Program-made: the position numbers and the translations under genes | Part shown: positions 20,274 to 40,350 of the stretch, piece by piece | How positions within the stretch are numbered: the stretch's first letter is position 1 | Layout of the letters: every line of letters begins with the position of its first letter | Notes under the pieces: model-generated | Told to the model about the DNA's origin: nothing | Seen by the model: the letters and a program-made list of their open reading frames with translations, nothing else | The model's database searches: none | From: a virus | Direction: 5' to 3' (one strand) | IMG/VR virus record: IMGVR_UViG_3300045988_141150 | DNA length: 40,350 nt

Positions 20274-20288
20274 GAGCTAAATGATTAA

Positions 20289-20813: not shown

Positions 20814-20834
20814 CAAGCAAAAGTTCCAATTCGT

Positions 20835-21245
20835 ATGATTGCGAATAAGTGCTATGACGATAACCTTCCAAGAGAAAATGGAATATGCGGTTCTTACGTT
20901 CGACCGGAAGACGTAGATTATTATGGAACATATGTCTCAACTTTAGAATTCGATGAACCTGCGCTCTCTAAAGAAGCTGTGCTTTTGGATATTTATCAAA
21001 GTGGTCATTGGCAAGGTAATCTAAACCTTTTATTAACTAATTTAAATTATAATGTGGATAATCGTGGAATTCCCGAAGATTTTGGCCCCAACCGCATCAA
21101 TTGCGGTCAGCGCTGTCAGCGACAAGGGACGTGTCATTATTGTGAAACCGCATTTATATTTTCTCGTGTTATAGATAAAGCCGTTCAAGCAAGTAAGCAG
21201 AATAATCCTATCCCCGAAGCGGAAGAAGACTCAATTGACAAATAA
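20835..21245 (+). CDS. Hypothetical Cys-containing protein of 136 aa.
   Basis: The ORF is in the track. Confidence 0.5.
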   Translation: MIANKCYDDNLPRENGICGSYVRPEDVDYYGTYVSTLEFDEPALSKEAVLLDIYQSGHWQGNLNLLLTNLNYNVDNRGIPEDFGPNRINCGQRCQRQGTCHYCETAFIFSRVIDKAVQASKQNNPIPEAEEDSIDK

Positions 21246-21296
21246 AAAAAATAATGTTATAATATAAATATAAGATAAAAGATAGGAGAATAAACT

Positions 21297-22403: not shown

Positions 22404-23704
22404 TTAAATTTTTTCACGGTCATTTAATTTATGAATGGCCGGAAAAGGTATCTTTTTCCTTAGATGATAAAACTAAAGAGCATCGTCTTGAAGAGTTTCT
22501 TGAAACAATTAATTATACTTATAATAATGAAGACTTAAAGGATTTTATTTCAGTAAATAAAGAAGGATTCTTTAACAATACAGTTATAGATACTTATTTC
22601 TATAAAGATAAAAAGATTCCAAGAGGAATGAAATTAGTTAAGGCTTTTAAGTATTTTGAAGAGAATCCACGCTCTTTGGAAGATATTCAGAATTACGCAA
22701 GTCGTATTATCCAAGAGGACAAGATTGAGGGAACATTATGTTTCTCAGTTCATCCTTTGGATTTTTTAAGCGTAAGTGAAAATACTTATAATTGGCGCTC
22801 TTGCCATGCACTTGACGGCGAATATAGAGCAGGAAATTTATCTTACATGGTAGATAAAAGCACTTTTATTTGTTATTTGCGCGGAGCAGAGAATCAGAAA
22901 CTTCCGCATTTCCCTGAAGATGTTCTTTGGAATTCTAAGAAATGGCGTATGCTTCTTTACATGGAAGATAAGCGACGTGGTTTAATGGCTGGTCGTCAAT
23001 ATCCTTTTATGACAACCAATGCTTTAATTAAAATTAAAGATATTATCAATACTTTTGATAAGACTTTTCAGTTGCGTGAATGGGTAGATGGAGGTATTAA
23101 TACTGTTTCTAATAGGATGAGCACTACTTCTTTTGATGAAGAAACTATTGGATTATCCGAGACATGGATTCCTATTTTATCTCGTTTATATCCTATTAGT
23201 GATATTGTTGAAGATATTGGCGAGCATACTCTTCAATATAATGATTTGCTTTATTCTTCTTGCTATTTACCCATTTATAGTTTAAAATTGTATTATTATC
23301 CATTAGAGACTGATCTTCCTCATTGGTCTATTGGTGGCGATGTCCCTTGTTTACAATGCGGTAAAACTATTATCGAAAGTGGAGAATATATGCGATGCGG
23401 AGACTGTGAATTCAATTATGGAGTAAACGAAGATGATAATTACGGTTATTGCGCTTGTTGCGGTTCTCGTATAATCCTTGATGAAGCAAATTCCGTAGGC
23501 GATGAGAATGAATTGGTTTGCGATAGTTGTGCAGATACTTATTGTAAACGATGCGAATGTTGTAATAATTTATATTATACAGAAGATATTCACTATCATA
23601 AAGGAACTGATATGTATTTATGTCCTTGGTGTTTTAGAGATGCTGATGAAGAAAAAGTTAATAATTTTAGGTCTTTAAAAGACTTTATACATAATTTTAG
23701 TTAA
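22274..23704 (+). CDS. Large protein with C-terminal zinc ribbons. It is a paralogue of the gene at 18141..19745.
   Basis: ATG at 22274 follows a GGAGGATTAGTC RBS, within track ORF 22253..23704. Confidence 0.6.
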   Translation: MSYDFDIESIKEQFNKVISYSQGISNPKTEELFERFLEAKKDLIKFFHGHLIYEWPEKVSFSLDDKTKEHRLEEFLETINYTYNNEDLKDFISVNKEGFFNNTVIDTYFYKDKKIPRGMKLVKAFKYFEENPRSLEDIQNYASRIIQEDKIEGTLCFSVHPLDFLSVSENTYNWRSCHALDGEYRAGNLSYMVDKSTFICYLRGAENQKLPHFPEDVLWNSKKWRMLLYMEDKRRGLMAGRQYPFMTTNALIKIKDIINTFDKTFQLREWVDGGINTVSNRMSTTSFDEETIGLSETWIPILSRLYPISDIVEDIGEHTLQYNDLLYSSCYLPIYSLKLYYYPLETDLPHWSIGGDVPCLQCGKTIIESGEYMRCGDCEFNYGVNEDDNYGYCACCGSRIILDEANSVGDENELVCDSCADTYCKRCECCNNLYYTEDIHYHKGTDMYLCPWCFRDADEEKVNNFRSLKDFIHNFS

Positions 23705-23716
23705 GGAGAATTAGAT

Positions 23717-24022
23717 ATGGCTAAAGGTACAGTAGCTAAGGAACAGATCGCCAAGAAAATGGCGGAAGTATTTGGCGCTGATTGGATCGGCGAGCGAGAT
23801 AAAAAGTATTATCTTTGGGCTAACGAGAATGGTGAGCGAATTCAAATTGCTATTAGTATGACATGCCCAAAGACTCCGGTTGGTGAAGCAGGTGCAACCA
23901 CGGATTCAAATGTTTTGAATTTTGAAGATGGGGCAACCGCAGGTGGAGAAACCCCGATTGAAATTACTACAGATGAAAAGAAAAATGTTGCTGATTTGAT
24001 GGCAAGATTAGGATTGAATTGA
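23717..24022 (+). CDS. Hypothetical protein of 101 aa.
   Basis: The ORF is in the track, with an AAGGAGAATTAGAT RBS. Confidence 0.55.
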   Translation: MAKGTVAKEQIAKKMAEVFGADWIGERDKKYYLWANENGERIQIAISMTCPKTPVGEAGATTDSNVLNFEDGATAGGETPIEITTDEKKNVADLMARLGLN

Positions 24023-24027
24023 TTTAA

Positions 24028-24062
24028 AGAGTAATGTCATTTGACATTACTCTTTTTTTTTG
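24028..24062 (+). terminator. Rho-independent terminator at the early/late boundary.
   Basis: Hairpin AGAGTAATGTCA-TT-TGACATTACTCT followed by a run of nine T. Confidence 0.75.
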
Positions 24063-24194
24063 TTATTATTTATTTAGTAAAAATGATAAATGGTTAGGTT
24101 TAACCGAAATTAAAAAATAAAATAAAATAAATTTTTAATAAAAATAGGATATATAGTATCCTAATTATTTATTTTATTAGGAGGAATTTTAATA

Positions 24195-24611
24195 ATGACT
24201 GAATTAAATAATACCTTTAAGGTAGTTGTTACTGACAATGAAGGCAAAGAGACTGAAAGTATTATAACTGGTCCTATTGTTTTTTCTACAAGTATTAATG
24301 GAGAAACTAGCGGAATTAAATATACTTTTAGACTTCGTGAATATTCAAAAGGCTATGATGTTGAAACTTTAAGTTTACCTAAAGTTTCTGCTCAGCTTAT
24401 TGGAAATTTTGATCGTTCAAAGGTTGCTAAAATTGGTGTATATTATTTAGCTGTTTCTAATGATTATAGAAAAGTTTTTGAAAAAAATGTTGCCAATATT
24501 GCTGAAATGGTATTCGAATATAATAATGATATTGGAGATAAGTCATATGCTAATAGTTATAACACTATAGCAGAGCTTAATATAACTTATACTCCCGAGG
24601 CTGTAAATTAA
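24195..24611 (+). CDS. Hypothetical protein of 138 aa, the first gene of the late block. It contains no TAG.
   Basis: The ORF is in the track, with a TAGGAGGAATTTT RBS. Confidence 0.55.
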   Translation: MTELNNTFKVVVTDNEGKETESIITGPIVFSTSINGETSGIKYTFRLREYSKGYDVETLSLPKVSAQLIGNFDRSKVAKIGVYYLAVSNDYRKVFEKNVANIAEMVFEYNNDIGDKSYANSYNTIAELNITYTPEAVN

Positions 24612-24624
24612 GGAGAGAATATAA

Positions 24625-25347
24625 ATGGCTGGTAGTCGTATTTCATGGAGCGATGTTCGCGCTCTATATGATACTTTAAATACTGCTTAGACTCGTTTTT
24701 CTCAATCTCGCACGGCTGCTCCCTCAAATGAGGGGCGTCGTACGAGAGAAAGTGACATTACTACTTTAAAAAATGAAATTGAAAATTTAAGAAATGTTTC
24801 TTATGTAGGAACTTAGGCTACTTTTTCTAATTTTACCGCTCCAAGAGCTAATGAACTTATGAAACGAGTCCCTTTAGAGGAAATTAGAAGTAAACTTGAT
24901 ACTATAAATGGCATTTGCGCCTATGATGGAGCGAATTATACAAGCAATAATGGTTATCGTGGTGCTAACTATACAAGTAATAATAGTCAACGTTCTTCTT
25001 ATTATTCAAGTAATGATGCTCAACGTTCTTCTTATTATTCAAGTAATAATGCTCAACGTGCTTCAGATTATTCAAGTAATAATGCTCAACGTTCTTCAGA
25101 TTATTCAAGTAATAATGCTCAACGTTCTTCAAATTATTCAAGTAACTATACTTATTATACTGCTAATTATTCAAGTAATAATGGTCATAGATCTGCTAAC
25201 TATAGTAGTAATAATGGTAATAGATCTTCTAACTATAGTAGTAATAATTCTCAACGTTCTTCAAATTATTCAAGTAATTATACTTATAGAAGTGCTTATG
25301 CTTCTAGAAGTTCAAATCGTAGTGGCGCTGGTAGAGTACGCTCTTAA
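24625..25347 (+). CDS. Repeat protein of 240 codons with two in-frame TAG. About 12 tandem 11-residue repeats of the form (A/S)xY(S/T)SNNxQRS follow a 100-residue N-terminal region. It is a candidate multi-core RiPP precursor.
   Basis: ATG follows an AAGGAGAGAAT RBS. The frame is continuous with track ORF 24859..25347 through TAG codons at 24688 and 24814. The underlying nucleotides form a 33-nt tandem repeat. Confidence 0.55.
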
Positions 25348-25378
25348 TTTTTTGAGAAAAAGGAGTTTTATAATATAA

Positions 25379-26878
25379 ATGTTTAAAGAAATGGATATTA
25401 GAGCAATATCTTTAGTTTCTTCATGTGGATGTAATTTACATTGTAAATATTGTCTTATTGAGAATACTTTAAATAATTGCTCTGCAAATTTACAACATGA
25501 AACTATTAAAGCTTTAAATGATGGTACTTTTTTAAATAATGTAAAAGGTATTTTTAAACGTTTAAATCTTGATAGATATAAAATAGAATGTTTTACTTTA
25601 TGGGGTCAAGAGCCTACATTGACATTACATCTTCTTACTGATCATTTGGAAGATTGGTTTAATTATTTCCCAAATATTAATCATATTGACTATTCTACTA
25701 ATGGGATGGATTTTCCTGAAAGAACTGTTAATTTTATTAAAAAGGTTGATGAATTAGCAAATAATGAACTTGCTTTAGAAGTTCAATTCTCTTATGATGG
25801 CACTTACTCAACCAATAATATTAGAAATGCTAATAATGAAAAAATCTTTGAGACTGCTTCAACTGTAATTAAAGAATTAAATAAAATTAAATTTCATAAT
25901 GTAAATGTATCTATTCAATTACATGGTGTTCTTTCTGGAGCTTTAATTCATGAACTTAATACAACTCAAAAAGTTCATGATTATTATAAAGATTTAGATA
26001 ATTTTGGATTTGAATTAGCTGATATTAATCTTAATTAGAGAGTTGAAGTAAATAGTAGTGTATCTATTTGCCCTGAGAATCCAAGAGATGGATCAGTTGA
26101 TGAACGTATTGAATATGAGTCTTTCTTACAACGCATTGTTAATATTGATGTAAGTGATTTTCATGACCCACATCTTCCAGTTAGTATTATTATTGGTTAT
26201 CGTCATCTTTATGAAGAAGTATTTTCTGATTTACATGGATTTACTGGAGAAGATCGTCCAATTACGCCCCAAGAATTAATGCGATTAGTTATGGAAGGAA
26301 ATCAAGAAGCAATTACTGTAGCTTCAAGAAATAATTTTTGTAGTGGTAATTTTAATGAATTAAAATTACTTTATGATGGTACTATGATGTCTTGTCAAAA
26401 CTTTATGTTTGATCTTGATGGTAATAATGTTAAAGATGATGGTACTATTGGAGCACAATTGAGAAAAGACACTCGTCGCACTAAAACTGATTGCATTAAT
26501 CTTTTAACTGATAGTGAAGAAGATATTAATAAAGTTATATATAAATATAATATGTATAAAACACATTCCTTCCCATTTATGTTTCAAGCAACTGTAAATA
26601 CTTTACAAATGCTTAATGAATGCAATCAATTAAATTCTATTTACAAGTATAATCCTGATAAATTATTAAGATTGGCATTAATTGCAACAAAAATTGATGC
26701 TTGTACTTATAATAATTTTATTTCTTCTGGTAGCGCGTTGTTAAGAAGTGTAGGCACTTTAAGAACTCAATCAGCACTATTTATGTATGTAGATAGAGAA
26801 AATAATTTACTTAAACCCGAAGAAGAATGGTTCCGAAATACTGAAAATATGAATGAATATAGAGGAGAAAGTAATTAA
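25379..26878 (+). CDS. Radical SAM enzyme of about 499 codons with one in-frame TAG at 26036.
   Basis: It carries CGCNLHCKYC, a CxxxCxxC motif. Track ORFs 25379..26038 and 26279..26878 are in the same frame, joined through a TAG with no TAA or TGA between them. Confidence 0.6.
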
Positions 26879-28281
26879 TGAATATTAGTGAAGGTTGTCA
26901 ATTAGATAATAATAAATATTTTGAAAAATTTATAGATAATTATATTTTTAATAGGGATCACCAAGAGGAAGGATACTGGATTAATGGAGAGTCTTTTGAG
27001 CTTATTATAAGACCCGAATGTAATCAACAATGTGAATATTGTTATGTTGCACGGTATGGAGATAAACTCTATCCGATGGAGAAACGCGCCGATAAGGAAA
27101 CTCTTGTTCATAATACAGATATTATTTTGAATTATATCTTTAAAGAAAGAAAAGTTTTATTTCATGAAATGGAACTTTTTGCTGGAGATTTATTTTATGA
27201 TGATATTGGATTTGAAATTCTCGAATTAATGTTTAAATATTATAAAGAATTATTTGATGAACATCCAAATATTTTTAATTTCCATCCTCGTATTGTAATT
27301 CCTAATAATTTTAGTTTTGCTATTGATGATAAAAAAGCTAAAAAAATGGAAGAGCTTTTAGCTAAATTTAAAACTATCAATATGGAAATAAGCCTTTCTT
27401 GTTCTATAGATGGACCTTATAATAGTGTGCGCGAGCGCGATAAAGATGATAGTTATTATACTAAAATTCTTGAATTCCTTCAAAGAAATCCTTGTGGTAT
27501 TCATCCTATGATTTCTCCAAGTAATATTGAGAGTGCTATTAAGAATTTTGATTGGTGGGACGAACAATATGAAAAGTATAATCTTGCTGGTGAAGACATT
27601 CATGATTTTCAACCTATGTATTTGGAAGTCCGCAATGATGAATGGACTGATGAGAAATTAGATCATTATCTTGAATTTTTAACTCATATGCTTGAAGTAA
27701 GATTTCATAAAAATGGTGAGTCTGTAGATAAATTGGCAAGACATATTTTCTTAGGAGATGGAAAAGAAGGTTCTTTACCTTGTCTTGGTAATTATGACCC
27801 TATTGGATTAACTTCTACTTGGAATAGTGAAGAATATACTTGCGCGATTTCGCATTAGACTTGTCTTTATGTGGCGAGTTTTGAATTTGCGCCTTGCCAT
27901 AGAACTTCTTATCCTCAGTTTCTTGGTGGACGTCTTGATGTAAAAGATGACAAAGTAGTTGGTATTACTGCAATTAATCCTACTGTGTATAGTGTAATTA
28001 AAACGAATAATACACATATGAATATTGGTTGTTTAACTTGTCCTTTTGATCCTTATTGTTTAAAAGGATGTTTAGGCGCTCAGTATGAAGCCACAGGTGA
28101 TTTATTTGTTCCCGGTGAAAGCGTTTGTAAATTACATAAAACACATTTAACTTTTTTAGTAAAGACTTATTGTGAGTTGGGATTAACTAAAATTGCAGTT
28201 GAAAAAAATTATTTTAAGAGTGAAGCAGATAAAGAAAAATGGCTTACTTTATGTCGTAAATTGGGGTATTATAATGATTGA
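26878..28281 (+). CDS. Radical SAM/SPASM-domain enzyme of about 467 codons with one in-frame TAG at 27856.
   Basis: It has an N-terminal CNQQCEYC radical SAM motif. Its C-terminal Cys cluster CLTCPFDPYCLKGCLG...VCKLH has the SPASM pattern. Track ORFs 26878..27858 and 27871..28281 are in the same frame. Confidence 0.6.
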
Positions 28282-28576
28282 AGAAATGAAAAGACAAATT
28301 CAACACTTAGATGATACTTTTGATCCTTCTAATGTTGGAGATTATAAAGATTTATTATATGTAATCTATTTAAATTGGATTGAAAATAATGGAGAAAACG
28401 AAGAAGTCAATTCTCTTATTAACAATTTAATTAAAAGAATTATTGATTCTAGCATTAATGATAATAATAATTGTGATAATTGTAATGAAGATGAAGATCC
28501 TAATATGAGTGAAGATTATTTAATTTATCGCCATTTCTTAGGATATAAAATTCCTGGCTATTGGCGTAATCATTAA
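28274..28576 (+). CDS. Small acidic protein of 100 aa. It could be an accessory protein or a precursor.
   Basis: ATG lies in the frame of track ORF 28193..28576 and overlaps the upstream TGA. Confidence 0.45.
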   Translation: MIEEMKRQIQHLDDTFDPSNVGDYKDLLYVIYLNWIENNGENEEVNSLINNLIKRIIDSSINDNNNCDNCNEDEDPNMSEDYLIYRHFLGYKIPGYWRNH

Positions 28577-29157
28577 TGTTAATTAATTTATATAATGCTC
28601 GTCAAACTTTATTAAGATCAGTAAAGTTTGACGAGCGTGAATGCGATGATATTGTTTTTGGATTAAATTTTCCAAAAGAAATTACTTTTTGCAAAATTGT
28701 AAATAATTCAAATGATATAGAATATTCTTCATTAAATTATCTATATAGTCAATTAAAAGATTTAGAATATAAAGATATAAAAATTATTGAATTAGTTTTT
28801 AATCAAAAACAAAAATTTACGTTTGAATCTACAGTAAAATCTATTTTTTATAGAACAATGTTATATTCAAGTTAGGGACAATTGGAATTTAAATTATATT
28901 TAACTTTACGATTTGAAGAAGAACATCCAATTATTTACGATAAAGAAGAATAGATTTTAAAGTGTGACAAAAATTGTAAACAGTTAAATAGAAAAATACA
29001 TCGTTGTGAATTTTTTCATAGTGATTTAAATGATATAAATGAAATTTGTACGGAATGTTTTTTGTAGGAAAGAGATAACCAAATAAAAGAATTGGTTAAT
29101 TATAATAGAGATATTATAAATGTTTTGGAGAATAAATATGGAAATAGATAGAACTAA
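28576..29157 (+). CDS. Hypothetical Cys-containing protein of about 193 codons with four in-frame TAG.
   Basis: It extends track ORF 28576..28875 through TAG codons to a TAA at about 29155. Confidence 0.4.
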
Positions 29158-31216
29158 AAATTATCAAGGGATTCCTCCTTATACTAATCCAATATGGAAA
29201 TCGGTTTATGATGGTGTTAGTTTAGAAATGCATATTGTAGATCATTGTAATCTTAATTGCGCAGGATGTAATCATTTTTCCCCTTTAGCAGAACCTTGGT
29301 ATATTGATTTAGATGATTTCCGTGATCAGATTACTTTTGCTTATAAAAAAATTCCAAATATAAAACTTTTTATGATTTTAGGTGGAGAACCTACTTTGCA
29401 TCCAAAATTATTTGAAATATGTTAGATTGCTAGAGAAGTTTTCCCAAAAAATAAAGTAGAAATTAAAATATTAAGCAATGGGTGTCATTTACAAGATGCT
29501 TTTAAACATGAGAAAGAATATCAAGATATGGGAGTAATATTTGATATTACTACTTATGGGAAATATACTGATCATAAAGCGGTAGAATATTTAGACAGTC
29601 ATGGTTTAGGTTTTAATCATAATTCAAGATTATTTATGCGACAATAGCTTGTAAATGAAGCAGGAACTACTGATATAAATGAAGTATATTTTCATAAATG
29701 CCCGCATTAGTTACCTTGTTTTACTTTAAAAAATTATAAAATTTATATATGTCCTTTTTCTGCACATTTGGATATTTATAGAAAAAAATATAATGTAAAT
29801 ATTCCAGAAGATGAAAGTGATTATTTGCGATTAGAGGATATAAATAATTTAGATGATTTACATAATTTTATTTTTAAGCCTAAAAATATTTGTAGATATT
29901 GCGATGGAACTATGTCTAAAGCCTCTTGGATTTGGCACAAATATTATGATACAAAATCGGAATTTATAGTTCCAATGGAAGATGCTTATTTTAGAGATTA
30001 TGATTTTTATTTAAAATTAGTTAATGATAAAGAAAATTTTTTAGAAAATTATTAGTTATTTAAAGAAAACAGATGCCCAATTGAATTTAGATATAATACT
30101 TATTATTTAAAAAAATGTTTTACTCGTTTTATTGATGGAAAAATGGATATTATAATACCTTATTATAATATGAATGATTAGCAAATTATTAATTTGTATA
30201 ATAATTTATCTACCCAAACAATTATAAAAGATTGTTGTGTATATTTTATTAGCGACCATTCTTTCTATGATAAAAAACTTATTGAGATATTTGATGAAGC
30301 GAGTTTTCCTTGTTTCTTTTTTAAGAATTTAAAACGAAAAGGACCAGGTCTAACTCGTAATTTAGGATTAGAATATTCTTTTAATAAATATGTGTTATTT
30401 TGGGATTCTGATGATTTATTCCCAAATGATAATGTTTTAGAAATTTTATATAATTCAATAAAACATAATGAGAAAGATTTTGGAGTATTTAAAATAGCTA
30501 ATACTGATAAATCAGTTGAAAAGATTAATTTAATTCTTAAAAGAGATTTTCTTAATAAAAATAATATAAAATATTCAAAATTTTTCTTTGGAGAAGACAG
30601 TATTTTCTTGGATAGATGTGATATTTATGGTGAATCTTATGAGTTAGAAGACTAGAATTTAGGTCTTTATATAACTTAGTTAGAAGACAATCCTAATTGT
30701 TTATCTCATTCTAATTCTAACATGGTAATTACAGCATATATTAATAAAATAATTGTATTTTTTGCTAATTTTATTGATGTTTTGAAATTAGAAAATATTG
30801 ATGAAAATCGTAAACAAAGTACTTTAAGACGGAATCTTTATAGAATTATTAATGAAATAAAATCAATAAGTGATTTAGATTCTTCTTTTTATGGATATGA
30901 AAATAATTATTTTTTAGAAAAAATTCTTCTTTTAATTTATTATATTTTATATACTATGTATAATTTATATAGTAACAAAGAAGATTTTAATAATATTCCC
31001 AATTTGTGTAATTTAGATAAACAAATTATAGAAGATATCAAAAGTTAGAAAATTAAATTTAGTCTTCTAAGAGGAGAATGTATAACTAATTTTGATGATA
31101 TTAAAAATGAAATTTATCCATTGTTAAATTATCTTAACAATGAATTATGCTATGTGCCTACTTATGAATGGTTTCTGAATTATTTAGATGGAAAAGGAGA
31201 GAGTATTTATGATTGA
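29138..31216 (+). CDS. Continuous 692-codon frame with 9 in-frame TAG and no TAA or TGA. It has an N-terminal radical SAM domain (CNLNCAGCNH, GGEPTLHP and a C-terminal CRYCDG) and a central GT2 glycosyltransferase domain (IIIPYYN...GPGLTRNLG...FWDSDD). It is one fusion protein or two to three cistrons.
   Basis: Track ORFs 29120..29425, 29768..30055, 30194..30655 and 30722..31048 all share one frame and are separated only by TAG. The frame ends at a TGA at 31214. Confidence 0.5.
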
Positions 31217-31391
31217 AACTTATCAAGAATATAAAGAAAAAGTTTATTTTCTTCTAAATAATTTTTTAGATTTTACTAAAGGAGATAAACCTTATTTATT
31301 TAATATGCCTTCAAAATTAGGCAATCTTCCTAATCTAAATGAATATTTATATTTTTGTTTTAATAAATCTGATGCAGGAGAAAATAAATGA
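31209..31391 (+). CDS. Small protein of 60 aa.
   Basis: ATG follows an AAAGGAGAGAG RBS, in the frame of track ORF 31188..31391. It ends in TGA. Confidence 0.45.
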   Translation: MIETYQEYKEKVYFLLNNFLDFTKGDKPYLFNMPSKLGNLPNLNEYLYFCFNKSDAGENK

Positions 31392-31930
31392 GGTTTACTG
31401 ATTATCATTTTGGATAGGCAGAGTCTGACTTTTGGACTTTATTAAAAGAATTTCTATTAAGGTTTGATCCCAATAGTATTTATGATTTTTGGATTTTATT
31501 TATTTATTTTTAGTTAGGTATTATTAGAAAAGATAGATTTATCATTTATTAGGTATAGTATATTTTAAAAGAAAAAATAGATTTTGAAGAAATTAATGAA
31601 GTAAATTTTAATACAATTATTCCAATAGAAAAGATAAATTTATCTAGTTTAAAAGATTGTATTTGGATAAGCTATTGGATTTGTTAGTATAATTATTAGA
31701 ATGATGAAAATTTAATTTTAATTTATAGTGAGAAAATATTTAATAATCTTACTAATATTTTTGAGCCGGATATTGTTATAGATATTCCAATAGTGTAGTA
31801 GAGTAATAAAATATGTAAAATGTGCGGTTTAGAGTCTAAATCTAATGGATAGAATATACCATTTTTTAAAATAAATGATAATAAATATTTATGTCCTAAT
31901 TGTTATTATTTATTAAAATTAAATGAATAA
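31388..31930 (+). CDS. Hypothetical protein of 180 codons with a C-terminal CxxC...CxxC zinc ribbon. It has about 10 in-frame TAG.
   Basis: ATG overlaps the upstream TGA. The frame is free of TAA and TGA for 543 nt in a region of about 25% GC. It is invisible to the standard-code track. Confidence 0.4.
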
Positions 31931-32023
31931 TTATTAAAACCTACTTTTATAGTAGGTTTTAATTGATTTTTAATAAAAAATAATGTATTATAATTATAAG
32001 ATAAATGAAAAGGGTGTGTTTAT

Positions 32024-33808
32024 GTGAATAATTATAATCAACATTATAAAGAAATAAGTCCTATTGAGACTGTTAATAATATTAAAAATTTTTTAGAAGG
32101 ACGCGGATTTACTTGTGTTGAGGAAGCTTTACGACAAGAACAATCAACTACTTGGAGTCTTGTATTAAATCTTGAATACAAAGGACATTTTGTGCTAAAA
32201 ACTTATGGCAAAGGTGTTACAAAAGAATTCGCCAGAGCTTCTGGTTATGCGGAAATGTATGAGCGTTTTTGTAATGGAATGCACTATCTTTGTAATTCTT
32301 TTCTTTGTGCGGAAAAAATTGAATTAAATAGAAAAAATTATGGTTATTCTTTGTTTAAAAATGAAAAGCCTTTAAGTTATAAAGAGGCACTTGGAGGAGA
32401 AGATACTCTTTTATATAAACTTTTTGATCGTTTGAATAAGAAAGATAATGGTTTATTAGAGGATTATTTTAAAACTATTTATAATAATGAATTTTTTGGA
32501 ATACCATTTAAAGGAGTCAACATTAATAAAACTTTATATATGGATCCTCGTCTTCTTCAACGTTATCATGGTAGTTCGGGAATGGCAGCCGGCAATACTT
32601 TTAATGAAGCCTTAAATCAAGGTTTATCTGAAATTTTCGAGCATTATGTTTTAAGTAATTTTTATATTGATATTGATAATAAAGATTTTTATTTTTATGA
32701 TACAGATAGTATTAAAGATGAAAAATTAAAAAATATTATTAGTGCGATTAAATCTCATAATAATAACTTTTATATTATTGATATGTCAAGAACTTATAAT
32801 GTGCCTGTTATGGTAGCAATTTTGATTAATAAATATAGTGGTACTGTAGCTATTAATTTTGGTGCTTTCCCTGTATTTGAAATTGCAGTTGAGCGAGTTT
32901 GTACTGAAATGTATCAAAATTGTTTTTCTTTTGATACAAGAAAAACTTCAGTTGTATCTCCGTATTATTCTTTAGATAAAGAAGATATGGTTATAGATGG
33001 CGGTTCTTGTATTACAAATCTTAATACTTTTCCTGAGAGTTTATTCTTGAATAAGAAATTTGTAAATACTATTAATAAAGATGTATTTTTATCTTATACT
33101 GATAAAAATTACTCTAATGATGAAATCTTAGAGCATAATAAAAAGATTGCTACTAATATTGGAGCAGATATTTATTGTGCTGATGTATCTTTAATTGATA
33201 CCGTATCTGCGATTAGTATTTATGTTGATAATCTTGACGGGCTATGGAAATCTTTCTTTGATAGATGCCAAGGAGTTAAAGAAACTGGAGAAGCAATTAC
33301 TATAACTAAAAATAAACATTTGGCCATTAAAAACTATTTAAATAATAAAGATAAAGTATATGATGTAATTAAATATTGTCTTGATTATTATAATATTACT
33401 TTTGACAAAATTGTAGATAGATTTTGTGGTTTACTTACTCATGGAGATCAATTAGTTGCTTATAATAATAAAAATATATTATTAACACCTAATGAGATGT
33501 TTGTTAAAAACCTTTATATGGATGCAACAGGATATTTATTAGAAGATGAAGGATTTTCTTTAGATATTTCAGTTAGTTGTTTTTATACTTATTATAAAAA
33601 ATATTTAACTTTATTAGCATATGTTCACAGTAGAAAATATACTAAAGAAGATATGATTAAAATTTTCAAAGAATTTGATTATACTTTTACTGATGAAGAT
33701 TTTAAACATATTACGGATAGAAAATATTTAGTAGAAAAATGTATTTTAGAGCCTATGTATAATACATTTAGAAGCAATGATTTTAAAGAAATGATTAAAA
33801 ATTATTAA
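32024..33808 (+). CDS. YcaO-domain protein of 594 aa.
   Basis: HGSSGMAAGNTFNEALNQGLSEIFEHY matches the YcaO ATP-binding signature, which has the form xGSNGLAsGNTxxEAxxQGLxExxER. The ORF is in the track and has no TAG. Confidence 0.65.
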   Translation: MNNYNQHYKEISPIETVNNIKNFLEGRGFTCVEEALRQEQSTTWSLVLNLEYKGHFVLKTYGKGVTKEFARASGYAEMYERFCNGMHYLCNSFLCAEKIELNRKNYGYSLFKNEKPLSYKEALGGEDTLLYKLFDRLNKKDNGLLEDYFKTIYNNEFFGIPFKGVNINKTLYMDPRLLQRYHGSSGMAAGNTFNEALNQGLSEIFEHYVLSNFYIDIDNKDFYFYDTDSIKDEKLKNIISAIKSHNNNFYIIDMSRTYNVPVMVAILINKYSGTVAINFGAFPVFEIAVERVCTEMYQNCFSFDTRKTSVVSPYYSLDKEDMVIDGGSCITNLNTFPESLFLNKKFVNTINKDVFLSYTDKNYSNDEILEHNKKIATNIGADIYCADVSLIDTVSAISIYVDNLDGLWKSFFDRCQGVKETGEAITITKNKHLAIKNYLNNKDKVYDVIKYCLDYYNITFDKIVDRFCGLLTHGDQLVAYNNKNILLTPNEMFVKNLYMDATGYLLEDEGFSLDISVSCFYTYYKKYLTLLAYVHSRKYTKEDMIKIFKEFDYTFTDEDFKHITDRKYLVEKCILEPMYNTFRSNDFKEMIKNY

Positions 33809-33819
33809 TAGGAGATTAT

Positions 33820-34698
33820 ATGAATATTAATTTTAATTGCCCTGAATTTTACTATGGGATTGAAGTATATGATAAACTTTTTGAATTACAAGAAATTGCT
33901 CCAGAAGCATTTTATCCAGAAGCCAAGGTAAAGTATATATATGGCTGTCTTCCTAATATGATTTGGAATGGTGGCGGATTTATGGATGGACGTCCAGAGC
34001 ATAATATTGATTATCTTTGCGCAATGCGTGATTTTTATGAAAAAAATAATATTATTTTACGTTTTACATTGACAAATCCGCTTTTAGAAGAAACTGACGT
34101 TTATGATAGATACTGTAATGAAATGTTAAAACTTTTTGATAATGGTATTAATGAAATTATTGTTAATTCTCCTATTCTTGAGCGCTATCTTCGAGACAAA
34201 TTTCCTAATTATAAGTTGACTAAAAGTATTACGGCAGCAAAAGAAGATTATGATTTTGTAAAAGCTCTTGATAATTATGAAAGCATTGTCCTTCCTCGTC
34301 GTCACAATAGAAATTGGGAACTTCTTGATTCTATTCCAAAAGATAAAAGAGAGAAAATTGAAATTCTTGCTGATGAAAGTTGTCCTATTGATTGTCCTCG
34401 TCTTTATACTCATTACAATGTTTTTGCAAATTTTAGTTTGTTTAAAAAAATTGATGACTCTCAGCGTAATTGTACTACTATGAAAAATAATGGCGCAGTT
34501 TTTCCTGAAATTGATAATAAAGATATGATTTATATGGATGAAATTTTAAATACTTATTTACCAAAAGGATATAATAATTTTAAGATTTCTGGGCGCAATT
34601 GCGCTGACCATTGTGCAAAATCTATTACTCCGTATTTTTTTAAACCAGAATATCAATTAGAAGGTTTTTGCGAGTTGCTCGATATTGGTTTGAGTTGA
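33820..34698 (+). CDS. Hypothetical protein of 292 aa, possibly a partner of the YcaO protein.
   Basis: The ORF is in the track. It begins 12 nt after the YcaO stop and has several Cys pairs. Confidence 0.5.
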   Translation: MNINFNCPEFYYGIEVYDKLFELQEIAPEAFYPEAKVKYIYGCLPNMIWNGGGFMDGRPEHNIDYLCAMRDFYEKNNIILRFTLTNPLLEETDVYDRYCNEMLKLFDNGINEIIVNSPILERYLRDKFPNYKLTKSITAAKEDYDFVKALDNYESIVLPRRHNRNWELLDSIPKDKREKIEILADESCPIDCPRLYTHYNVFANFSLFKKIDDSQRNCTTMKNNGAVFPEIDNKDMIYMDEILNTYLPKGYNNFKISGRNCADHCAKSITPYFFKPEYQLEGFCELLDIGLS

Positions 34699-34702
34699 TT
34701 TT

Positions 34703-34741
34703 AACTCCTTACTATTTTATTTAGTAAGGAGTTTTTTTTTT
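34703..34741 (+). terminator. Rho-independent terminator.
   Basis: Hairpin AACTCCTTACTA-N7-TAGTAAGGAGTT followed by a run of ten T. Confidence 0.75.
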
Positions 34742-34822
34742 ATTTAACCAGATTAAATTAATGACTTCTTATAAATTTTTAAATTTTATAGAAATAATAA
34801 AATTTATAAGGAGGTCATTTAA

Positions 34823-35377
34823 ATGGCAATTCCAAAAGCAATAGAACATATGCGTAGTGGAAGTGGCGGTTTAGAAATTATTCCAATTATTTCTACTGAT
34901 GGATTAACTTACACAGGAACCGCAAAATCTATTAAAGAATATAAAGACGGAATGATTATTGGTCTTATTCCAAATATGAATAATATTGCGACAAATCCAA
35001 TTACTAATATAACGATAAATATAAATAATTTAGGAGCATTAAAATTAACTCAATATTATATTAAAAAAGAACATTCTAATAATGGATTAGGGTGTTGGCA
35101 CAGCAATACTGCTGTAGAAGCCAATTTTTTATATAAAGATGAAGCTTTTATTGGATAGATACAATTAGGGTCATCTAGTGGTGATTATATTTTACCTATT
35201 AATCCAGGATTAGACTTAGCTTAGATTACTAATGGTTCTATTGGGTCTAATTTGTCTGTCACTGCTAATTCTTCTTATTTAAACAATAATATTTTAAGAA
35301 ATATTAAAGTATCTACTTCTGCTCCCACCGCTTCAGACGGAAATGTTGGAGATATTTGGATTTAGTATTTCACTTAA
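34823..35377 (+). CDS. Putative virion or tail protein of 184 codons with three in-frame TAG.
   Basis: Track ORF 34823..35158 continues in frame through TAG to a TAA at 35375. An AAGGAGGTCATTTAA RBS lies upstream. Confidence 0.45.
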
Positions 35378-35393
35378 TAGAGGAGGAATTTAA

Positions 35394-36809
35394 ATGCCAA
35401 ATACTTATAATCCTTCTGGAACTTCTATAACAGATTATTCTTCTATTAAATTTATTCCAGGAGATATTATTAATAGTAGCTATTCAGGAGCGGTAAATCC
35501 AGTAAAACTTCCAACGGGAAATTATCAATTAGAATGTTGGGGTGGCTATGGTGGAATTGGTTATTCTGGTTCTTTAACTTCATCAACAACAACTTCATGG
35601 ATATATATAGGAACTAATAATGCAACTAGTTATTTTAGCATTAATAATGATTCAAATTATTATTTCCGTCAAGATGGAAATGACTGGATAGCTACAAATG
35701 GCGGTATACATTCAAGTACTGCAACCACTACATTAACTTGTACTTCTGCGGGAACTTACAAGATTTATTATTATTATCAGACTGAAGTAAATTGTGATAA
35801 AGTTACTTTAACTGTTGGAGGATCAACGGTTTTAAATGCCGTATCGGGGTCATAGTCTTTAACTGAAGCTGGTAGCTATTCTTTATCATCAGGGTCTACT
35901 ATTGTAATGACTTATTCTAAAGATAGTTCAGTAAATGCCGACAATGAAGAAGTTTATTTTTAGATTTAGAAATAGGAGAGTAATACTACTTATACTCCCA
36001 CAAGTTCAAAAAATAGTTATTGGGGTGGAGCAGGAGGATATTCTACAGGAATTCTTTCTTTATCAGCCCCTACTGTTATCTATTTGTATACAGGAGGTTA
36101 GGGTAATTATTCAAGTAATAGTGAAAAAGGAAAAGTAGTTAGTGGCGGATTTAACGGAGGAGGTAGCTCTAGAATCAGATGGTATACTTCTGCTTATACA
36201 TCAGGAGGTGGCGGAGGTGGCGCTTCCGATGTTCGTATAGGCCAAGACTCTCTTTACGCCCGTGTAATTGTTGCTGGCGGTGGTGGCGGTGGCGCAGGAG
36301 AAAGCAATTCTTCTATTAAATAGGGCGGTGGATTAACTGGTAATTCTGCTGTTGAAGAATATAAAGCTACGTAGACTAAAGCCGGAACAAATGGATCTTT
36401 TGGCCAAGGGGCTGATGCTAGTGGATCTGCCAATTATAATTATGGTCCCGGTGGTGGTGGTGGAGGCTGGTACGGTGGTGGTGCTTCTACTAATGTTAGT
36501 GACAGTTCCGCCGATTATAGAACTTATAATGGCGGAGGTTCTGGCTATGTATATACTTCATCAACTGCCTCTAATTATCCTTCTGGCTGTTTGTTAAATA
36601 GTAATTATTATTTAACAAATGCTTCTACTGCTATAGGATATAGTAAAACCAATCCAGGAGGGCAACATGGGTATATTCGTATTACAGTATTATCTCCATT
36701 AAATGTAAAAATTAATCCTAACACCTATGCTCCTATTAAAGCAATATATACAAAAATAGATAACACAACTTGGAAAGGAGGAATGACTACATGGCAACCT
36801 ATGACTTAA
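35394..36809 (+). CDS. Glycine-rich tail-fibre-like protein of 471 codons with 7 in-frame TAG.
   Basis: Track ORFs 35394..35855, 36352..., and 36591..36809 share one frame. The N-terminus contains LPTGNYQLECWGGYGG. The C-terminus contains SGYVYTSSTASNYPSGCLLNS...GYIRITV. Confidence 0.55.
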
Positions 36810-38128
36810 CTTCTTCGATTCCTTCTTCTTCTTCTTTAAGAACGGGGGATATATTAAATTGTCCTTATAGTGGATCTGCTAAATCAATTACTCTTCCAAA
36901 AGGCACTTATAAATTAGAATGTTGGGGAGCACAAGGTGGAAATGCAGGTTATTATAGTTATGTTCATTCAACCCCTAATGGAGGAAAAGGTGGATACTCT
37001 ACTGGTGTAATCACTTTATCTTCAAGTGTTATAGTATATCTTTATACCGGAGGACAAGGAGGAAGTACTATCGGGAATAAGCTAGACTAGAATTCAGTAG
37101 CTACAGCACCTGGTGGATTTAATGGAGGTGGCATCGCTAATCAAATGGGAGCCGCTGGTGGTGGTGGAGCTTCTGATATTCGCATAGGCCAAGATTCTCT
37201 CTATGCTCGTATAATCGTCGCTGGAGGCGGTGGTGGTGGAGGCAATGCGAGTAGTTCTACTTTATTATCTTGTGGCGGAAATGGTGGAGGAACTACTGGT
37301 GGAACTCCACCTAATTAGCACAATAATAGAACCCCAGGAAAAGGAGGAACTCAAACTGGAATAACAGCTAGTCGTTCATCATCAATTTCTGCGGGATTTG
37401 GTAATGGAGCTGGTGGTACGGGAGAAAATCTTCGTGGAGCCGGTGGCGGTGGCTGGTATGGTGGAACTATGGGTGAAAATTCAACTGGCGGAGGTGGAGG
37501 TTCTGGTTATGTATATACTTCCTCAACTGCTTCTAATTATCCATCTGGTTGCTTATTGAATAGCACTCATTATCTTAGTTCTGCTTCTACAATAGCTGGC
37601 GACACTTCATTCACTTCTCCAACAGGGTCATCTGAAACAGGTCATAGCGGAAACGGGTATATAAGAATTACTATTTAGTCTATTGTTAACTGGGCTTATT
37701 CTACTGTATCAATTCCTGCTCCTACTTATAGTAAATAGGATACTTCTTCTTGGACTTTATCTCCGAGTGCTTGCAGGTATTTTTCTTTTACCCCTACTAT
37801 TTCAGGAGATTTTATTGTTTATTCCAATTCTTCAATAGATACTTTTGGCTATTTAACATCAAATATTGTTTCTCTTAATAGTAGTGGATAGCCTTCTTCT
37901 AATATTTTAGCTAGTGATGATGATTAGGCAAAAAAATATGGTGGATCTGGAAGTAATTTTGGTATTTGTTATAAAGTTACTGCTGGAACTACTTATTATA
38001 TATATGTTAAGCCTTATCGTGATAGTACAGCAAATAGTTCAGTATATTTAACTTATTATATGGCTCATCCTGACAGTAGAGTATATGTAAAAACAGATAG
38101 TACAACATGGAAATTAATAACCAATTAA
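36791..38128 (+). CDS. Glycine-rich tail-fibre-like protein of 445 codons with about 8 in-frame TAG. It is a paralogue of the gene at 35394..36809.
   Basis: It shares LPKGTYKLECWGAQGG, SDIRIGQDSLYARIIVAGGGGGG and SGYVYTSSTASNYPSGCLLNS...GNGYIRITI with the upstream gene. It ends at a TAA at 38126. Confidence 0.55.
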
Positions 38129-38165: not shown

Positions 38166-38299
38166 ATATTTATAAAATAAAGAAAGACCTTTACAGCAAA
38201 AATAACTTCCAGAATAAACTAATGATTAAGTCATAATCCTTTAAGATTAAAATAATGGTTCAACTCCATTTTCCGGACAAAGTTAAGGTCTTGTTTTTA

Positions 38300-38374
38300 T
38301 AGGCGTCTGGTGTAACGGTAGCATGCGGGTCTCCAAAACCTTGCGGTGTGGGTTCGAATCCTACGACGCCTGCC
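38300..38374 (+). tRNA. tRNA-Trp with anticodon CCA.
   Basis: Acceptor stem AGGCGTC pairs with GACGCCT over 7 bp. The T arm is GTGGG-TTCGAAT-CCTAC. The anticodon loop is CTCCAAA. The discriminator is G and CCA is encoded. Confidence 0.7.
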
Positions 38375-38396
38375 ATTTTAGACAAAAAGAACTTTT

Positions 38397-38425
38397 TTGA
38401 TTTTATTAAAAATATATAATATAAT
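38397..38425 (+). promoter_or_regulatory. Family-A promoter.
   Basis: TTGATT, a 17-nt spacer, TATAAT. Confidence 0.6.
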
Positions 38426-38459
38426 ATATATAGAAAGTTGAGAAAGGAGAAAATAAATA

Positions 38460-38642
38460 ATGAATATTGAAGTTGGTAATTCTTATTGTTTTGTCCCTTA
38501 TCGTGGTCGTTGTTATCGTAGACAGTATCTTAAATGTACTGTTATTCGAGTATTAAATTATCAGATTGAAGTCCTTGATGAGCATGGTGAAAAATGGCTT
38601 CTTTCAGAAGATGATTTAATGCCAATTCAAAGACCTTATTGA
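38460..38642 (+). CDS. Small hypothetical protein of 60 aa.
   Basis: The ORF is in the track, with an AAAGGAGAAAAT RBS, and sits between two promoter copies. Confidence 0.45.
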   Translation: MNIEVGNSYCFVPYRGRCYRRQYLKCTVIRVLNYQIEVLDEHGEKWLLSEDDLMPIQRPY

Positions 38643-38667
38643 CATTTTATAAAAAATATTATATAAT
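38639..38667 (+). promoter_or_regulatory. Family-A promoter: TTGACA, a 17-nt spacer, TATAAT.
   Basis: It matches the motif. Confidence 0.6.
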
Positions 38668-38726
38668 ATTTATATAAGATGAGGAAAGAAAAAAGAAAAT
38701 AAAAAACTTTGGGTAAAAGAGAAAAG

Positions 38727-38755
38727 TTGATTTTTTAAAAAAAATATAATATAAT
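38727..38755 (+). promoter_or_regulatory. Family-A promoter: TTGATT, a 17-nt spacer, TATAAT.
   Basis: It matches the motif. It drives the interrupted tRNA. Confidence 0.6.
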
Positions 38756-38794
38756 AAATATATAAAGTAAGGATTTTAAAAGTCCTTCTTTTAT

Positions 38795-39342
38795 GGGAGT
38801 GTAGCTCAGTTGGTTAGAGCACGCGGCTGTTTACTTGACCTTATCATTTTCTTATAAAAAAATGAAATGAATAGTAAACAAAAAGGTAATATTACCGAGC
38901 TTGAAACAATGTTAGCATTTATGAAACTTGGTTATAATGTTCTTACTCCTTACGGAGATTGTGAGCGTTATGATTTTGTGGTTGATGTAAATGGTAAATT
39001 TATTAGAATTCAAGCTAAAACATCGCGAACCGAAGATGAAGGAGCTTCTTTTATTTTTTCTGGTAGAAGTTGCCATAGAAAAGATGGAAGAATAGTTCAT
39101 CATCAATATACTAACGAAGAAATTGATTACTTCGTAACTACTTTTAATGGAAAATGTTATTTGATTCCAGTGGAAGAGTGCGGAGCAGATAAAAGACTTC
39201 GTATTCTTCCACCTAAAAACAATCAAGTAAGAGGTATTACTTGGGCGAAAGATTATGAGTTGGAGGAAGTAGTAAGAAAATGGTAAGCTGATGTGTAAGC
39301 AACCGCGGTTTGTCGTGAGTTCGAGTCTCTCCTCTCCCGCCA
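38795..39342 (+). tRNA. Interrupted tRNA gene, tRNA-Asp-like with an inferred anticodon GUC. The 5' half is 38795..38830 and the 3' half is 39300..39342. A 469-bp insertion in the anticodon loop separates them.
   Basis: The 5' half reads GGGAGTG-TA-GCTCAGTTGGTTAGAGC-A-CGCGG-CTGT. The 3' half reads CAA-CCGCG-GTTTGTC-GTGAG-TTCGAGT-CTCTC-CTCTCCC-G-CCA. The anticodon stem CGCGG pairs with CCGCG perfectly. The acceptor stem pairs 6 of 7. The D loop resembles tRNA-Asp. Confidence 0.55.
38867..39286 (+). CDS. PD-(D/E)xK nuclease of 139 aa encoded inside the tRNA insertion. It resembles Hjc and I-Ssp6803I and is a candidate homing endonuclease.
   Basis: The ORF is in the track. The motifs ELETML (E), GDCERYDFVVDV (D) and IRIQAKTS (Q/E-x-K) occur in the order and spacing of the Hjc / I-Ssp6803I fold. 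Confidence 0.55.
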   Translation: MNSKQKGNITELETMLAFMKLGYNVLTPYGDCERYDFVVDVNGKFIRIQAKTSRTEDEGASFIFSGRSCHRKDGRIVHHQYTNEEIDYFVTTFNGKCYLIPVEECGADKRLRILPPKNNQVRGITWAKDYELEEVVRKW

Positions 39343-39582
39343 TTGGGGCGTTAACACGGATTTTGTAAGTTTAAACTACCACCGATCGAAAGAGTATGTG
39401 GCTTGCGGAAAACGCCCGACTAAATATAAGGAAGCGAAGTAAAACTTATTGTGAAATAGTAGCTATACTCACATTAATCAAGGCTATGGGTTCTGGGAAT
39501 CCAAAAGAGTAAAAGTTGGTTCGAGTCCTAACGATTGACGAAGTTCGAATCTTCGCGATGTGGGTTATAAAACTCTTTATTT
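39343..39582 (+). ncRNA. Structured non-coding region with tRNA-like fragments of uncertain nature.
   Basis: It contains the long-range helix GGGGCGTT...AACGCCC at 39346 and 39411. It also holds two T-arm-like motifs, GTTGG-TTCGAGT-CCTAAC and CGAAG-TTCGAAT-CTTCG, but I cannot fold a complete canonical tRNA. Confidence 0.3.
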
Positions 39583-39659
39583 GCTGGTGTAGCCGAATTG
39601 GCATAGGCGAATGATTTAGGATCATTAATCTGAAGGTTCGAGTCCTTTCTCCAGCACCA
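39583..39659 (+). tRNA. Class-I tRNA with a short variable loop and anticodon UAG. The anticodon would read CUN codons as Leu, but amino-acid identity is uncertain.
   Basis: The acceptor stem GCTGGTG pairs with CTCCAGC 6 of 7. The anticodon arm is AATGA-TTTAGGA-TCATT. The T arm is GAAGG-TTCGAGT-CCTTT. The discriminator is A, CCA is encoded, and the variable loop is 5 nt. Confidence 0.6.
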
Positions 39660-39746
39660 GTCCCTCCCTGGGAATGCGTTGAAGGCTTGCGAACTTTGAA
39701 CGCAGGTGGTTGGCAACTCCATCTATACATAAATAAGTTGCGTTTT

Positions 39747-39825
39747 GGGCTTCGGGACTGCATGGCGTGGTCGTCTGTCTTGCACACAGAAAATCAGGTG
39801 AGTTCGATTCTCACGAGGTCCACCA
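39747..39825 (+). tRNA. tRNA-Ala with anticodon UGC.
   Basis: The acceptor stem is GGGCTTC with GAGGTCC and includes a G3:U70 pair. The anticodon arm is TCTGT-CTTGCAC-ACAGA. The T arm is GTGAG-TTCGATT-CTCAC. CCA is encoded. Confidence 0.6.
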
Positions 39826-40225
39826 TTATATGGTTATATGGTGTAAAGAGTAAGCACGGCGGTTAAATAAACCGCAAATTTAGGAGCATTGCCTAATATA
39901 ACCGATTATATGATTGGTGATAAAAGCAGCCAGAAATATTATCTTATTAATTAAAACTTAATACAATATACTAAACGATATAATAGATAAGGTATATTAA
40001 TAAAATTTATATACAATAAGATAATATATACAAAATGCTAATAGTGATTTTGGTTCCAGCGCTAGGAAAGTTTTTCCCACTACGAAGAGAAAATTTGAAG
40101 AGTTAGCGTAGTCTTGATAATTATGTCTTAAATAATTATCCCTTTTTGGCTCATAACCTTTTTTTGGATAAAAAATTATATTATATTTACCGTGATGCCG
40201 CGGAGGGACGGCCGCCCTAAAGTGC

Positions 40226-40350
40226 GATTAAGATTAGAAAGAAGTTGGAAGATCTTCTTAAAACTTCCATTAGATTAGAAAGAAGTTGGAAGATCTTCTT
40301 AAAACTTCCATTAGATTAGAAAGAAGTTGGAAGATCTTCTTAAAACTTCC
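40226..40350. repeat. 41-bp direct tandem repeat, ATTAGATTAGAAAGAAGTTGGAAGATCTTCTTAAAACTTCC, present in at least three copies and running off the window end.
   Basis: Copies sit at 40226, 40269 and 40310. Each unit contains the nested inverted repeats GAAGTT..AACTTC and GAAGATCTTC. Confidence 0.8.

Follow-up and report, generated by a model that had tools for sequence, protein, structure and literature searches.

Amber codons are read as sense, most probably as glutamine, in a subset of the genes of a ~190-kb human-gut phage

Partial recoding of the amber codon TAG to glutamine, phage-encoded suppressor tRNAs and recoded modules scattered along the genome are known in large gut phages (10.1101/2021.08.26.457843; PMC10607447; PMC11210395), and in crAss-like phages the assignment of TAG to glutamine has been validated by metaproteomics (PMC9523058). 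The gut phages with genetic code 15 described by Borges et al. include the large Jade, Sapphire and Agate clades, with mean genome sizes of ~150-210 kb (bioRxiv 10.1101/2021.08.26.457843), and phAss-1, of the proposed Phassvirus, has a genome of 136 kb with TAG in 41 open reading frames (ORFs) and three suppressor tRNA genes (PMC10607447). In addition, minimal ribozymes resembling that of hepatitis delta virus (HDV), the theta ribozymes, are located at the 3' end of phage tRNAs, a fifth of which are suppressors (PMC10879173). Here we describe a stretch of viral DNA of 40,350 nucleotides (nt), the IMG/VR virus record IMGVR_UViG_3300045988_141150 (called the window at its full length), and in particular a block of genes at positions 24625-38128, for which an original prediction had proposed recoding of TAG. 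We are highly confident that this DNA belongs to a human-gut phage with a genome of ~190 kb, some of whose genes are decoded under genetic code 15, with TAG read as glutamine.

When TAG is taken as a sense codon, the plus strand at 24625-38128 is tiled by frames of 0.3-2.1 kb, each closed by TAA or TGA. These frames make up 13 plus-strand genes with 4423 codons, which contain 41 in-frame TAG codons, no TAA and no TGA, and all 13 genes terminate at TAA or TGA, as had been predicted. The two off-frames of the same DNA contain 529 TAA, 294 TGA and 208 TAG. At the off-frame rate of TAA plus TGA, 9.3% per codon, a frame of 698 codons free of both would arise by chance with p ~1e-30, in agreement with the earlier claim that the long frames are no accident; the low guanine-plus-cytosine (GC) content on which that claim was based (~25%) also stands, since we measured 20-30% at 24-35 kb versus 35-39% in the remaining window, with 33.5% for the window overall. 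The same-frame fragments parted only by TAG at 24688, 24814, 26036 and 27856 were found again, as were the seven TAG codons of the gene at 35394. However, the frame at 29138 has eight TAG codons rather than nine, and TAG makes up 0.93% of the block codons instead of the 3-5% originally estimated, reaching 5% in 31388-31930 only. TAG is absent from four of the block's genes (32024-33808, 33820-34698 and the small genes 28274-28576 and 31209-31391). Under the standard code, 14 of the 24 ORFs in the block 'end' at TAG, versus one of 41 at 4.8-24.6 kb, and that lone ORF is a piece of the read-through gene 20445-21245 (see below). Counted over codons, TAG is in frame at 41 of 4423 in the block versus 2 of 5729 outside it (Fisher p = 4e-13).

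Protein domains and homologues run through these codons. The Radical_SAM and Glycos_transf_2 matches in 29138-31216 each span TAG codons, the glycine-rich domain (ALK_LTK_GRD) matches in 35394-36809 and 36791-38128 run across TAG codons too, and 58%-identical relatives of the fusion enzyme encoded by 29138-31216 align over residues 6-698. The original prediction had considered that homologues might show the TAG-separated fragments to be separate genes; instead, the homologues align across the TAGs, and individual TAG sites are retained as TAG in 9-15 independent assemblies. In the window, at least 10 genes have TAG as an internal sense codon, and no gene uses it as a terminator. Public gene calls for the same phage already translate through TAG.

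The stretch at 6642-28011 is a 99.99% match to a scaffold of 190,948 bp from a human-gut metagenome (ENA ERZ28595197, LIJU14-1 scaffold_23), and ENA, Logan and IMG/VR contain many contigs of 160-197 kb that are related or nearly identical; the phage is a human-gut phage with a genome of ~190 kb. A megablast search of the block against 50,697 phage records returned 0 matches, with no deposited phage genome similar at the nucleotide level. Matches of the window's proteins to deposited phages are few and distant and come only from Bacillus and Enterococcus phages, the other matches being to unclassified faecal contigs, so that, on these searches, a kinship with the crAss-like and Lak phages named in the original prediction is not shown. 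An exact look-up of the proteins encoded at 38864-39286 and 2258-2662 found no record for either. The host is probably a member of the Bacillota, to judge from the DUF5052, SPOR and SLH domains. For comparison we used six close relatives from IMG/VR, which are 82-95% identical to the window in nucleotide sequence, counted over the aligned parts only, together with more distant loci.

To assign a residue to TAG, database protein homologues were rejected as a guide, since TAG is translated as Q from the outset in that collection and the argument is therefore circular; for instance, a 95%-identical database protein has Q at all eight TAG sites. We therefore replaced them by a comparison at the codon level, in which the block proteins, with X at each TAG, were aligned to DNA from 117 loci, and the codons facing each TAG were read. 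At an identity of at least 45%, we observed 57 distinct position/residue events at 26 sites, 11 of which are glutamine, an 8.9-fold enrichment over composition, while the next-best residue is enriched 1.7-fold. Ten of the 11 glutamine events are CAA, which is two mutations away from TAG, and thus mutational proximity is no explanation for the pairing. In the reverse direction, the TAGs of relatives fall on a glutamine of the window at 9 of 36 positions. Using a likelihood computed from a substitution table built on the same alignments, glutamine ranks top in both directions, with a combined lead of ~60 log units at an identity of at least 45% and of ~40 in the two other identity ranges examined, and it comes first in 952 of 1000 bootstraps over positions. 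With locus L043 as the partner, 21 of 37 sites (57%) keep 'TAG or Gln', a proportion similar to that for true glutamine codons (48%). Exchanges between TAG and CAG also occur as strain polymorphisms at 27856 and 28981; further strain exchanges of TAG (with GAG, AGT, TAT and TGG) fall in hypervariable parts. Three distant bacterial radical SAM homologues were uninformative, as the TAG sites lie in variable columns. As judged from the aligned DNA, then, TAG is exchanged with CAA and CAG among relatives at the rate expected of a glutamine codon, and the best assignment of this sense codon is glutamine, which is what the original prediction had proposed and had suggested checking in homologues.

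The codon usage points the same way. With TAG included, glutamine accounts for 2.60% of the block codons versus 2.11% in the TAG-free genes. The latter have 68 CAG among their 115 CAA and CAG codons (59%), while among the glutamine codons of the block (n = 115) there are 6 CAG (5%) and 41 TAG (36%). This loss of CAG and gain of TAG fits a C-to-T drift by which CAG would have become TAG in the AT-rich genes of the block.

The original prediction had also recommended a search beyond the region for a tRNA with anticodon CUA or a gene for release factor 2. A tRNA(CUA) is present in six of the six close relatives, and neither a release-factor nor a synthetase gene was found in the ~80 kb examined. 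The relatives' tRNA(CUA), which scores 56 bits with the Rfam tRNA model, is located between tRNA-Val(UAC) and tRNA-Tyr(GUA) in the phage tRNA array, the start of which lies on the plus strand of the window at 38208-39905 (an odd tRNA-like gene, tRNA-Trp(CCA), an interrupted tRNA-Asn(GUU), tRNA-Leu(UAG) and two weaker calls). Measured from the counterpart of 38208, it is located ~11 kb downstream, which places it ~9 kb beyond the end of the window. A more distant relative has two tRNA(CUA) genes, one of them abutting a tRNA-Gln(CUG). The common form has a length of 90 nt, with U1 opposite U72 (unpaired), G73, U35 and no encoded CCA. Lack of 1-72 pairing, G73 and U35 are all recognized by glutaminyl-tRNA synthetase in the Escherichia coli system.

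Directly 3' of the tRNA(CUA) there is an HDV-like element with the arrangement GGUGCU-AAAAACAAA-ACCUCCUCGCGGU-AGCACU-GGGUAAUGCUAA-UUUGUUU, which is predicted to be able to form the nested double-pseudoknot helices of a minimal HDV-like ribozyme. Its motif CCTCCTCGCGG occurs once per relative and always right after the tRNA(CUA), and a match to RF02682 starts right after the tRNA as well, with 26.1 bits against a threshold of 44 (E = 0.06). The element also follows a different, 73-nt suppressor variant in loci L021 and L024. We consider it a candidate minimal HDV-like ('theta'-type) ribozyme. The tRNA(CUA) together with the ribozyme candidate is located at 15549-15693 in L022, with counterparts in L015-L018, L020, L021 and L024.

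Two other tRNA candidates were rejected as suppressors. The tRNA-like gene at 38208-38278 has a six-base anticodon loop, CUUUAA, which is CUUCAA in other strains and is partly deleted in L003; the 'tRNA-SeC(tca)' genes called by ARAGORN in L022 and L024, considered as an opal suppressor, were without Rfam support at E <= 0.1. The gene at 38208-38278 scores 37.5 bits and is present in most relatives, with CUUCAA in L005, L012 and L015, and L003 has partly lost it together with the adjoining tRNA-Trp. In the same array, the tRNA-Asn(GUU) at 38795-39353 is interrupted behind base 36, in the anticodon, by an insertion of 469 bp (38832-39300), which codes for a PD-(D/E)XK endonuclease of 140 amino acids (PF11645, I-Ssp6803I type) and has ~46 nt of non-coding sequence. 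The insertion is absent from L003, which has an intact tRNA, and present in L017 and L020; it has no group I intron match, and its last base is not G.

The largest part of the block is an accessory low-GC island of ~10.7 kb (24062-34742) with terminator hairpins at 24026-24055 and 34703-34733. The island is missing from L012, L015 and L016, where the flanks are joined directly, and L042-L044 harbor a divergent version of it with 58-65% amino acid identity. It contains a repeat protein, two radical SAM/SPASM-like enzymes, a radical SAM/glycosyltransferase fusion as well as a YcaO and a U32-like protein, and in this content it looks like a peptide-modification cluster, with the repeat protein (24625-25347) as a possible substrate. 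The core part of the block consists of a gene of 184 codons and two genes for glycine-rich-domain proteins.

All genes of the block are on the plus strand. The repeat protein gene (24625-25347) encodes 240 amino acids with two TAGs, 24688 and 24814, the former of which is opposite CAA in three relatives; the C-terminal half of the product consists of 10.5 copies of an 11-residue Ser/Asn/Tyr-rich repeat. It is followed by a gene for a radical SAM enzyme of 499 amino acids (25379-26878), whose single TAG (26036) is opposite CAA in relatives, and by one for a radical SAM/SPASM-like protein of 467 amino acids (26878-28281), whose single TAG (27856) is CAG in six other strains. A small TAG-free gene of ~100 codons with an uncertain start codon (28274-28576) precedes a gene of 193 codons with four TAGs and no assigned function (28576-29157), in which the CAG at 28981 is TAG in four other strains. 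The radical SAM and glycosyltransferase-2 fusion of 692 amino acids (29138-31216; eight TAGs) is followed by a TAG-free gene of 60 codons (31209-31391) and by a gene of 180 codons with nine TAGs and neither CAA nor CAG (31388-31930), where four of the nine TAG sites are CAA in relatives. Between the TAG-bearing genes and the TAG-free YcaO pair there is a terminator-like hairpin (31933-31963, plus strand), and directly after it a degenerate copy of the phage's sigma-70-like promoter (31963-31994, plus strand). The pair itself consists of the YcaO-domain protein gene (32024-33808), for which source annotations use a later start that gives 509-517 amino acids, and a gene for a protein of 292 amino acids with a weak resemblance to peptidase U32 (33820-34698). 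In the core part, all three TAGs of the 184-codon gene (34823-35377) are conserved as TAG in 15 of 15 aligned loci, and the two glycine-rich-domain proteins have 471 amino acids (35394-36809; PF12810; seven TAGs, three of them within the domain match) and 445 amino acids (36791-38128; six TAGs, two within the match). A tblastn search with the glycine-rich domain against phages gave no match, for which the low-complexity filter is the probable cause, and a sequence search of the PDB with four proteins gave nothing useful.

None of the block genes has a recognized structural or lysis annotation, and the same is true of the rest of the window. Downstream of the window, however, the relatives have tail-fibre-like paralogues with 0-10 TAGs, a NAGPA/SPOR lysin-like gene with two and an HNH endonuclease gene with five, and these TAG-bearing genes, as identified from their sequences, do fit the published pattern.

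The recoding is not confined to the block, contrary to the original prediction, and the YcaO gene and its neighbor show that it is not uniform within the block either. A gene of 266 codons at 20445-21245 on the plus strand contains two TAGs (20547 and 20811), so that the claim that no gene at 4872-24611 needs read-through does not hold. Its TTG start is preceded by AGGAG, it is conserved from end to end in relatives, 20811 is glutamine in four of them, and a 44%-identical homologue aligns over both TAGs. On the minus strand, the genes at 3280-3711 (143 codons, four TAGs, in a strain-variable region) and 3917-4414 (165 codons, two TAGs) are each one single gene in the source-contig annotation. 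Read-through in this pair is graded only probable because neither gene has a family match.

Taken together, these results suggest how decoding in this phage may work. The phage of the window would carry the same suppressor ~9 kb past the window end, and this tRNA would be charged with glutamine. The TAG-free genes would be translatable by the unmodified host machinery, and the TAG-bearing genes would yield full-length products only after the suppressor has built up; the suppressor-dependent set would then include the radical SAM island and the glycine-rich proteins and, in the relatives, the tail-fibre, lysin-like and HNH genes. Such a putative model of early and late timing is plausible. We found 19 sigma-70-like promoters with an AT-rich spacer where 1.7 were expected, nearly all of them in the TAG-free region and the tRNA array. 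A candidate late promoter, the motif TTTAACC..A.TAAA upstream of 24195 and 34823, was rejected, since there are just two copies and this was equalled or exceeded in 6 of 100 shuffles.

Several observations weigh against glutamine decoding by this suppressor or against the timing model. Most TAG sites are at variable positions, with glutamine in some relative at 11 of the 26 informative sites, and tyrosine is a weak runner-up in one direction. The window itself contains neither a tRNA(CUA) nor a release-factor gene, and the suppressor is known only from relatives that are 82-95% identical over the aligned parts. Moreover, the commonest suppressor has a variable arm of 21 nt, unusual for a tRNA-Gln, and since this long arm and the tyrosine-like anticodon arm are atypical, a small doubt about glutamine remains. 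As for timing, the block has a strong sigma-70-like site at its left edge (24041-24069; 11 of 12 positions, and with TG), the TAG-bearing gene at 20445 comes with a sigma-70-like promoter of its own, and our searches gave no function for the TAG-free genes.

The alternative that survives best concerns the timing model. The patchy distribution of TAG may simply be due to mosaic ancestry and mutation pressure, with CAG turning into TAG in AT-rich accessory and fast-evolving genes wherever the suppressor makes the change harmless, with CAA and CAG simply retained by the conserved genes, and with no life-cycle switch at all; we regard this as possible, though on balance somewhat unlikely as the whole explanation. 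The island is accessory, has a GC content of 20-30% and exists in two versions that are 58-65% identical, and the other TAG-bearing genes likewise are low in GC, strain-variable or mobile, for example the HNH gene (five TAGs), an extra gene of 305 codons in L012 (six TAGs) and the minus-strand pair at 3.3-4.4 kb. CAG has nearly gone from the block (6 versus 41 TAG) with CAA remaining, and the tail-fibre paralogues of the relatives range from 0 to 10 TAGs. However, in ~40 consecutive genes (5.4 kb of codons, 20445 excepted) TAG occurs neither in frame nor as a stop, suggesting selection for compatibility with both codes rather than drift alone, and the two TAG-free genes of the island are located behind a terminator and a promoter-like site of their own. 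Mosaic ancestry and AT drift would explain part of the TAG pattern, and being an account of its cause, they are compatible with glutamine decoding as the mechanism.

A more far-reaching idea, which we hold to be rather doubtful, is that the suppressor is a hybrid, with a class-II-like body, a glutamine-type acceptor end and release by a cis-ribozyme, and that it is the key to a mobile recoded radical SAM/YcaO island. In its stronger form, TAG may be decoded ambiguously as glutamine and tyrosine. Another possibility is that TAG, though a sense codon, stands for tyrosine, serine or tryptophan, or ambiguously for glutamine plus a second residue, through a class-II-like suppressor beside tRNA-Tyr. 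Trp, Ile and Tyr are among the isotypes that have been predicted for phage suppressors (PMC10879173). In our relatives, the 90-nt suppressor with its 21-nt variable arm differs from the adjacent tRNA-Tyr(GUA) at 3 of the 17 positions of the anticodon arm and is overall closest to phage tRNA-Trp and tRNA-Tyr, and TAT/TAC ranks second among the partners of TAG in some comparisons. However, TAT is one mutation away from TAG, and the pairing of the two is inflated by that alone; glutamine is ranked first by likelihood in both directions, by 20-60 log units; and against L043 'TAG or Tyr' is retained at 43% of sites versus 81% for real tyrosine codons, while TAG opposite Trp is found 0 times in the best-match comparisons. 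G73 and an unpaired 1-72 position are not tyrosine identity features, and mischarging mutants of the E. coli su+3 (supF) tRNA-Tyr(CUA) with such changes insert glutamine. We therefore judge a reading other than plain glutamine to be improbable. Finally, the standard code, with the TAG-parted pieces as short genes, pseudogene fragments or an assembly artefact, can practically be discounted, since standard-code ORF calling does yield many fragments of plausible length but these continue in one frame without TAA or TGA, single Pfam domains and full-length homologue alignments span the TAGs, the same TAGs are found again across many assemblies of different samples, independent of one another, and TAG is swapped with CAA or CAG; together, these findings exclude independent small genes, pseudogenes and assembly errors.

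Some further features of the window were recorded. The TAG-free gene at 22274-23704 encodes a highly conserved protein of 476 amino acids, which has more than 2000 homologues (46-53% identity), HPLDFLS.SENTYNWRSCH as an invariant motif and a tail made up of CxxC pairs; its AlphaFold model is good (predicted local distance difference test score 83) and has no significant fold match in the PDB, and its synteny with an unannotated Enterococcus-phage block gave no function. It is overlapped over 130 nt by an ORF for an M20/M28-like peptidase (21297-22403; PHROG E = 8e-43), which is uncalled in the source-contig annotation. Two perfect TTGACA-17-TATAAT sites (679-707 and 1186-1214), with GC-rich spacers and TGG before the -10 box, are unlike the AT-rich-spacer promoters and are located in a stretch of 41% GC without a convincing ORF. 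At 40231-40350 there is a perfect 41-nt tandem repeat of 2.9 copies, cut at the window end, and several assemblies break there or nearby.

The phage described here is a further instance of the known phage code-15 phenomenon, with a recoded accessory island and, in relatives, a long-armed suppressor as minor novelties; it opens no new question. Its practical consequence is that annotation with the standard code would break at least 10 genes of the window, and the phage family must therefore be annotated with translation table 15. The family is abundant in the gut, with hundreds to thousands of near-identical sequences in public metagenomes. The window also adds one more large phage in which only some modules would depend on a phage-made suppressor tRNA, and it indicates that an altered code can be used to write a biosynthetic island that varies among strains, two genes of which stay readable in either code.

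In comparison with known systems, the phage resembles crAss-like and Lak phages in that TAG would stand for glutamine and in the proposed division into genes compatible with the standard code and TAG-containing late genes. However, there is no sequence similarity to deposited crAss-like or other phage genomes, and the phage has a genome of ~190 kb, protein matches to Bacillus and Enterococcus phages and a host that is probably a member of the Bacillota. With phAss-1 it shares the origin from a human-gut member of the Caudoviricetes, the patchy TAG read-through and, here in the relatives, the phage's own suppressor tRNAs, but it has no nucleotide match in the phage collection and its genome size is different. 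As with the theta ribozymes, the relatives' tRNA(CUA) is without an encoded CCA and has an HDV-like element immediately after it, although the Rfam score is under the threshold (26 versus 44 bits) and the element, known from sequence, is located beyond the window. The suppressor is also reminiscent of su+3 (supF), an amber suppressor with a class-II-like body, G73 and an unpaired 1-72 position, as an analogy only. A further parallel is with the code-15 phages of Borges et al., which likewise come from the human gut, have TAG in part of their genes and several recoded modules across a large genome, encode a suppressor tRNA and include homing-endonuclease, tail and lysis genes among the recoded ones (both here in the relatives); unlike in those phages, the largest recoded stretch in the window is an accessory radical SAM/YcaO island rather than a structural or lysis module.

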